Positions 33,530 through 33,567 of a DNA stretch of 64,000 bases are shown here, one piece after another. The position numbers were made by a program, and so were the translations under genes. The first letter of the stretch is position 1, and each line of letters opens with the position of its first letter. The notes below the pieces were generated by a model, which was not told the origin of the DNA, made no database searches, and saw nothing but the letters and a program-made list of their open reading frames with translations. Origin of the DNA: Escherichia coli (GTDB lineage Bacteria; Pseudomonadota; Gammaproteobacteria; Enterobacterales; Enterobacteriaceae); the NCBI RefSeq assembly GCF_003018255.1, contig NZ_CP027440.1; one strand, 5' to 3'.

Positions 33530-33567
33530 CACTGTATAAAAACCCTATACTGTACGTATCGACAGTT
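33530..33567 (+). promoter_or_regulatory. Tandem LexA (SOS) boxes upstream of ydjM
   Basis: CTG-tacgtatcga-CAG (33550-33565) is a perfect CTG-N10-CAG box; an adjacent weaker box cactgtataaaaaccctata (33530-33549) abuts it; ydjM ATG at 33582. Confidence 0.7.

Follow-up and report, generated by a model that had tools for sequence, protein, structure and literature searches.

The window analysed here, a 64,000-nt stretch of DNA, is from Escherichia coli, and the 1 kb around the ydjM operator within it was 100% identical to many complete genomes, being found in 5,423 of 5,426 complete E. coli genomes. In an identical genome annotated by RefSeq, the genes run in the order yniA, yniB (opposite strand), hxpB (yniC), ydjM, tcyP (ydjN), cedA and katE. 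The regulated gene, ydjM, occupies positions 33582–34172 on the plus strand and encodes 196 amino acids plus a stop codon. The ATG at 33582 was taken as its start; the same start is annotated by RefSeq in a 100% identical genome, and all 80 of 80 YdjM orthologues align from residue 1. A longer open reading frame from GTG 33570 was not supported: unlike the invariant ATG, position 33570 differs between species. The upstream gene hxpB ends at 33418, giving a 163-bp intergenic region before ydjM, and a terminator scan identified its intrinsic terminator, a hairpin with a 10-pair stem (7 G-C pairs) and a T-run, at 33425–33448 on the plus strand. Given the end of hxpB and this strong terminator, the ydjM control region is therefore restricted to ~130 bp, 33450–33581. 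No Rfam family was found in 33380–33640, where sub-threshold matches fell on the hxpB terminator only, and the single-strand fold of the operator was ordinary (z = −1.0). A small terminator-like hairpin with a T-rich run (GGAAGGTCACCTTCT CTTTTCTATT) was observed at 33590–33604, within codons 3–11 of ydjM, and is probably incidental.

The ydjM product matched the Pfam family PF04307 (YdjM) with E = 7e-36 and 123.8 bits (cut-off 29), and the NCBIfam equivalog NF008651, 'metal-dependent hydrolase', with 375 bits (cut-off 216). Its AlphaFold2 model was all-helical with a pLDDT of 91.5, and residues H6, D46, D48, H71, R72, H76, S77, H113 and E148 were invariant. YdjM is a polytopic inner-membrane protein, in which a His/Asp/Glu cluster is invariant, and is probably a metal-dependent hydrolase. 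It was still termed 'poorly characterized' in a 2024 preprint, and its description as an SOS-regulon membrane protein of unknown role, made beforehand in a sequence-only reading of the window, agrees with published knowledge. The top match in a search of representative proteins, P0121 (7,287 aa, from outside the window), was rejected as a scoring artefact: it comprised 105 weak matches to YdjM residues 34–78 from a low-complexity tandem-repeat translation (…QPVARQFGHQPPTSSSCPTSGKTIRPSAADFF…) with no D-x-D-H motif.

Two LexA boxes lie immediately upstream of ydjM. The one nearer the gene (proximal), TACTGTACGTATCGACAGTT, spans 33548–33567 and carries a perfect CTG-N10-CAG core at 33550–33565, precisely where the sequence-only reading had placed it; the gap to the ydjM start, given there as about 15 nt, is 14 nt if counted from the 20-mer or 16 nt if counted from its core. 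A perfect match to this pattern is by itself statistically uninformative, the pattern being too common: bare CTG-N10-CAG occurred 26 times in the window, with 12.5 ± 3.7 expected. A window scan for the full 20-mer consensus with up to three mismatches returned no match, so that real boxes were missed too. Since the bare pattern was too common and the consensus scan was empty, a weight matrix was used instead. The matrix was symmetrised and derived from 17 published E. coli LexA boxes (PMC3009722 table), excluding ydjM and also cho, whose box was omitted from training because it is located in the window.

With this matrix, the proximal box scored 15.6 bits, ranking second of 63,981 window positions and falling within the range of the training sites (13.5–28.4 bits). 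Sites scoring at least 15.6 bits were expected 0.077 times per 64-kb window, as determined from 300 dinucleotide-preserving shuffles. The box has the characteristics of an SOS-box dyad, namely CTG-N10-CAG, an AT-rich spacer and agreement with the TACTGTATATATATACAGTA matrix, and its published heterology index (HI) is about 9.0–9.1 (PMC8072944; PMC11228462). The best LexA-matrix match of the whole window, at 19.3 bits, was the cho (ydjQ) box CACTGGATAGATAACCAGCA (45812–45831), identical to the published cho box and separated by 14 nt from the GTG start of cho at 45845. A further sequence, CACTGGATAGATTATTAGCA, at 32001–32020 in the 3′ end of yniA, was identical to the cho LexA box at 16 of 20 positions, including the first 12 nt; it has no CAG arm, scored 6.6 bits only and is probably a chance resemblance. 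A REP-like palindromic element (GCCGGATGCGGCGTGAACGCCTTA...) was also seen in the nadE-cho intergenic region, at 45660–45695.

Conservation was assessed by a scan of one genome per species, which provided 80 ydjM loci from about 25 Enterobacteriaceae genera, and the 80 distinct upstream regions were aligned. At the orthologous position, the proximal box scored at least 15.1 bits in 79 of these loci and 11.8 bits in the 80th (Atlantibacter). Its CTG and CAG arms were invariant (80/80), and the usual distance to the ATG was 14 nt. The box was also present in four extra loci, from Erwinia, Pantoea, Paramixta and Klebsiella. The abundance of the bare pattern in the window would favour a chance LexA-like sequence with no regulatory role. 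However, this explanation is refuted by the matrix score and shuffles, by conservation across genera and by published LexA-dependent induction (PMC11228462), and it can safely be set aside.

The box further upstream (distal), CACTGTATAAAAACCCTATA, spans 33530–33549. Its core reads CTG-N10-CTA (33532–33547), with the left half-site CTGTAT at 33532–33537 and, at 33545–33547, a right arm of CTA rather than CAG. A second, degenerate box adjoining the perfect one, as proposed from the sequence, was thus borne out. The dinucleotide TA belongs to both 20-mers, 2 nt lie between the 16-bp cores, and the spacing from centre to centre is 18 bp. The distal box scored 10.85 bits, fifth of the 63,981 positions and under all training sites (at least 13.5 bits), and 1.09 sites as good were expected per shuffled window. 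By itself, therefore, the distal box is indistinguishable from chance, and it is significant solely by its adjacency. A site of this quality 16–24 bp from a strong site was expected ~3 × 10−4 times and occurred in none of 300 shuffles, and any site of this quality was present in 0.8% of shuffled versions of the 163-bp intergenic region. The chance-level score would be accounted for if only the proximal box were functional and the distal 'box' were core promoter DNA, a −10 element and spacer, with an incidental resemblance to a LexA site and no role in repression. The rarity of such adjacency to a strong box argues against this alternative, which was weighed further using the alignment.

Both boxes kept the 18-bp register in 78 of the 80 Enterobacteriaceae loci, where the distal box was the best second site at exactly −18 bp, and also in Erwinia and Paramixta, at 65–70% protein identity. 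The two-box arrangement was present in Klebsiella as well. Across the 80 aligned upstream regions, the C-T-G-T-A of the distal box was 97–99% conserved per position. Were the distal element core promoter DNA only, CTGTAT would lie in the promoter spacer, where sequence is normally free; its conservation at this level and in exact register is difficult to reconcile with a functional proximal box alone. Column conservation was 93–95% over 33507–33567, compared with an average of 72% for the intergenic DNA further upstream, and the LexA operator is thus conserved among orthologous ydjM promoters. Upstream of four distant YdjM relatives (45–54% identity), no gamma-type LexA box was found, a result that is little informative as three of the four are from very AT-rich genomes.

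The two halves of the distal box did not behave alike. The right arm was never CAG in 84 loci but invariantly CTA, and CCTATACTG (33544–33552) was 100% identical in 80/80 loci, as would be expected of a promoter element. This indicates that part of the conservation of the distal box must stem from something besides LexA. The CTGTAT half-site was lost in two lineages, Citrobacter amalonaticus S646 and Intestinirhabdus alba, both of which retained AAAAA(A/T)CCTATACTG, the proximal box and the conserved block further upstream. In Pantoea, the distal element was 1 nt shorter and so out of register. Loss in two lineages and the register shift in a third indicate that the distal element is dispensable, and the loss of CTGTAT with retention of CCTATACTG indicates that the two halves are under separate constraints. 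The invariant right arm, the two losses and the shift in Pantoea are all points in favour of a functional proximal box alone. When set against the conserved half-site and its register, however, they leave that explanation quite unlikely. Judged by this pattern of conservation, the distal element behaves as a good LexA half-site fused to a separately constrained promoter-like sequence, and not as a decayed full dyad. Such a composite, of a dispensable LexA half-site and the invariant promoter-like CCTATACTG, would explain why a full dyad never evolves.

The distal box is also polymorphic in E. coli. The published K-12 distal box has T at 33543 and scored 13.2 bits, whereas the window has C at this position. 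The C allele occurs in 1,098 of 5,426 complete E. coli genomes, and the K-12 type was exact in about 4,039 of them. Across genera, C is the majority state (63 of 80 loci). The K-12 allele, CACTGTATAAAAATCCTATA, is given as a LexA site in PMC4576408. Published HI values for the distal box, 12.85–13, lie inside the range covered by accepted sites, polB among them (PMC11228462; PMC8072944), which again speaks against an incidental resemblance.

The junction of the two boxes is a probable location of the ydjM −10 element. The invariant CTATACT (33545–33551, plus strand) includes the hexamer TATACT at 33546–33551, which matches TATAAT at five of six positions, and its invariant T33546 and A33547 go against the LexA consensus. 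An alternative −10-like hexamer, TATAAA, lies inside the distal box at 33535–33540 on the plus strand, with A33538–A33540 invariant. TATACT and TATAAA were the only two five-of-six −10-like hexamers, both within the boxes, which end 14 nt before the ATG. No good −35 was found ahead of either. A sigma-70 promoter scan of 33350–33650 gave nothing at 9/12 matches, and our own enumeration reached 8/12 at best, with CCGTCA-16-TATAAA as the best combination of the region. From the sequence, we consider TATACT at the junction to be probably the −10 element. An invariant CTATACT in this role would explain why the distal box has never acquired a CAG right arm. The sequence CTATACTG is similar to CTACACTT, the −10 consensus of sigma-38, whose promoters can do without a −35 (PMC2759082); this would fit the absence of a good −35 at ydjM. 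A literature search returned no paper tying ydjM to RpoS dependence, and neither a mapped ydjM start site nor usable ChIP data were found in the accessible literature.

The lack of a good −35 ahead of both hexamers would also fit a different arrangement, in which the boxes form a roadblock downstream of a promoter located around 33459–33487, with ATTAAT as its −10, rather than occluding a −10 element. In genomic SELEX, the spacer between yniC and ydjM gave a peak for the RpoD holoenzyme, for which the SELEX authors proposed CTGAAA-17-ATTAAT, and the window has CTGAAT at 33459–33464 and ATTAAT at 33482–33487. This promoter assignment is, however, a sequence guess under a low-resolution peak, and the proposed hexamers were 50–90% conserved per column, below the values for 33507–33567. 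The invariance of T33546 and A33547 against the LexA consensus is, moreover, most readily accounted for by a −10 hexamer placed at the junction. We therefore regard the roadblock arrangement as unlikely. In either case the boxes cover both −10-like hexamers or sit between promoter and gene, so that LexA occupancy should block transcription.

Taken together, the two boxes are very probably the tandem LexA operator of the promoter of ydjM, a known member of the SOS regulon. One LexA dimer would bind the consensus-like proximal box at 33548–33567, and a second would bind the distal element at 33530–33549 by way of the good outer half-site CTGTAT. The two dimers would cover about 38 bp, including TATAAA at 33535–33540 and TATACT at 33546–33551, and would thereby block formation of the open complex by RNA polymerase. 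Repression would thus proceed through occlusion of the −10 region. By analogy with other strong-plus-weak tandem sites, the distal site may add to repression, perhaps because the two dimers bind cooperatively. Once DNA is damaged, LexA would cleave itself under stimulation by RecA, leaving the promoter free and ydjM induced.

Published data are in agreement with LexA control of ydjM through a tandem operator. Tandem LexA-binding sites at E. coli ydjM were experimentally reported by Fernandez De Henestrosa et al. (2000, Mol Microbiol 35:1560), as cited in PMC4951493; tandem binding, as given in this citation, also counts against a functional proximal box alone. Salmonella ydjM likewise has two SOS boxes, at distances of 14 bp (HI 9.12) and 32 bp (HI 12.85) from the ATG (PMC8072944, Table 1). 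The gene was induced 2.1-fold by nalidixic acid, and a ydjM::gfp fusion gave no detectable fluorescence (PMC8072944), a silence compatible with low expression and not diagnostic. By RNA-seq, AZT raised ydjM expression 2.5-fold, and the dependence of ydjM on LexA cleavage, measured as the reduction in lexA3, was 8.6-fold (PMC11228462, Table 1). The gene was also induced throughout a time course (PMC11002266) and is listed among LexA-regulated genes in an SOS review (PMC6590174). The earlier proposal that two adjacent LexA boxes control ydjM is thus upheld by the reported tandem sites, by the 14/32-bp geometry in Salmonella and by LexA-dependent induction. The observations that would speak against it, an absence of LexA binding or of induction by DNA damage, are answered by the binding report as cited in PMC4951493 and by the induction and lexA3 values above.

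The same published table was used to place ydjM among other SOS genes. The log2 LexA dependence fell with heterology index (r = −0.65; PMC11228462), and ydjM lay 1.9 log2 above the line, ranking third of 28 genes, though at z = 1.3 only. Its 8.6-fold LexA dependence was the highest among genes with a main-box HI of 8–10, the others ranging from 0.67 to 6.9. Its induction by AZT was as predicted and unremarkable, as it would be if only the proximal box acted. Repression that is both cooperative and tight, as suggested in the sequence-only reading, may be considered for ydjM as an inference. The operator itself is already known: ydjM has been an accepted two-box gene of the LexA regulon since 2000, and its identification here is a rediscovery with nothing new in it, which illustrates that a real SOS operator is recognisable from raw sequence alone. 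YdjM is one of the few classical SOS genes without a known function.

Conservation at the locus was not confined to the boxes. An invariant block, GTTACAcCGTCACCaCTTCCG, at 33507–33527 on the plus strand, was as conserved as the boxes in the 80 Enterobacteriaceae loci, and mean column conservation over 33510–33529 was 0.925, compared with 0.72 further upstream. The conserved footprint is thus about 61 bp (33507–33567), exceeding the 38 bp of the two boxes. The sequence GTTACAnCGTCAC was also present in Erwiniaceae; wherever this was checked, its G lay 43 nt before the C of the proximal CTG. In 54 of 79 loci, TGTGAC-N5 preceded the block to form an imperfect dyad, TGTGAC-AAAGA-GTTACA (window 33496–33512); other Escherichia have TGTGAT there, and in the window allele, TAAGAG, the left half is destroyed. 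A CRP site at TGTGA-N-TTACA was rejected as canonical on manual reading, the half-site spacing being 7 and not 6. The block was also rejected as a −35 element, as it fits neither −10 candidate.

The block GTTACAnCGTCAC...CTTCC at a fixed 43 nt, the dyad in most genera and the sigma-S-like CTATACT with no usable −35 raise the tentative possibility of a second, undescribed regulatory input besides LexA. Under this somewhat doubtful proposal, read from sequence patterns, an unknown activator or an alternative holoenzyme would be needed in addition to removal of LexA. If true, expression of ydjM would require DNA damage together with a second stress signal. If the locus holds anything new, it would be in the block at 33507–33527. 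An 11-nt exact copy of it, GTTACACCGTC, was noticed in the nadE-cho spacer at 45756–45766 (minus strand), about 46 nt upstream of the cho LexA box; the chance expectation was about 0.005, for a match noticed post hoc. A GTTACAC sequence (45808–45814) directly abuts the cho LexA box. The sequence GTTACANCGTCAC had 13 matches in the window versus 3.9 expected, and this recurrence was not taken as a sign of a regulon, most copies probably being inside genes with a codon bias unmodelled by the shuffles.

The operator in the window was lastly compared with known LexA operators. It is the same element as the published ydjM operator, which also appears in RegPrecise-type listings, with an identical proximal box, the same 18-bp offset and the same distances of 14 and 32 bp to the ATG; the base at 33543 is where the distal boxes differ. 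When tandem sites are defined as at least two LexA boxes with centres no more than about 22 bp apart, ydjM belongs to this class with 18 bp. With the same matrix, centre spacings were 22 and 18 bp for recN, 21 bp for lexA and 15 bp for ColE1. The lexA operator likewise has two adjoining boxes just upstream of its gene. It differs in its 21-bp spacing, equivalent to two helical turns with 1 bp between the 20-mers, and in that both boxes are full, strong dyads (20.8 and 18.0 bits).

The ColE1 cea operator resembles that of ydjM in pairing a strong box (22.2 bits) with a weaker one (15.2 bits), the ends of the two overlapping. Its centres are, however, 15 bp apart, with the 16-bp cores sharing 1 nt, rather than 18 bp, which would place the two dimers in a different helical relationship. 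Unlike those of ydjM, both ColE1 boxes have preserved one perfect outer arm, CAG or CTG, and are preceded by a promoter with a canonical TTGACA. Cooperative LexA binding that enhances repression has been reported for colicin genes (Gillor 2008, as cited in PMC4951493).

LexA control of this protein family is also found in a distant phylum. In Staphylococcus aureus, the SAOUHSC_02424 operon encodes a PF04307-type protein under LexA control (PMC11442139). Unlike ydjM, this gene has one box only, of the Firmicute type (CGAAAATATGTTCG), and shares its operon with genes carrying UDPGP and HlyIII motifs; the operators are not homologous. Control of a YdjM-family gene by LexA in this organism nevertheless makes a role for YdjM in the damage response a reasonable, though modest, question.

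A likeness in detail was found with boxes 2 and 3 of E. coli K-12 recN. These have centres 18 bp apart and 20-mers sharing TA. One box is strong (18.0 bits), and the other is weak (14.2 bits), with its degenerate arm at the junction. They are also close to the start codon, the distances for Salmonella recN being 8 and 26 bp (PMC8072944). In recN, however, the weak box is promoter-proximal with a defective arm of ATG instead of CTG, and a third, very strong box is located 22 bp further upstream. That a weak box in this geometry is accepted for recN is a further argument against a functional proximal box alone at ydjM. The ydjM geometry is therefore a second instance of the known recN 2/3 layout, distinct from the colicin arrangement cited for cooperativity. 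This 18-bp, TA-sharing geometry, common to ydjM and recN 2/3, bears on how LexA dimers might interact.
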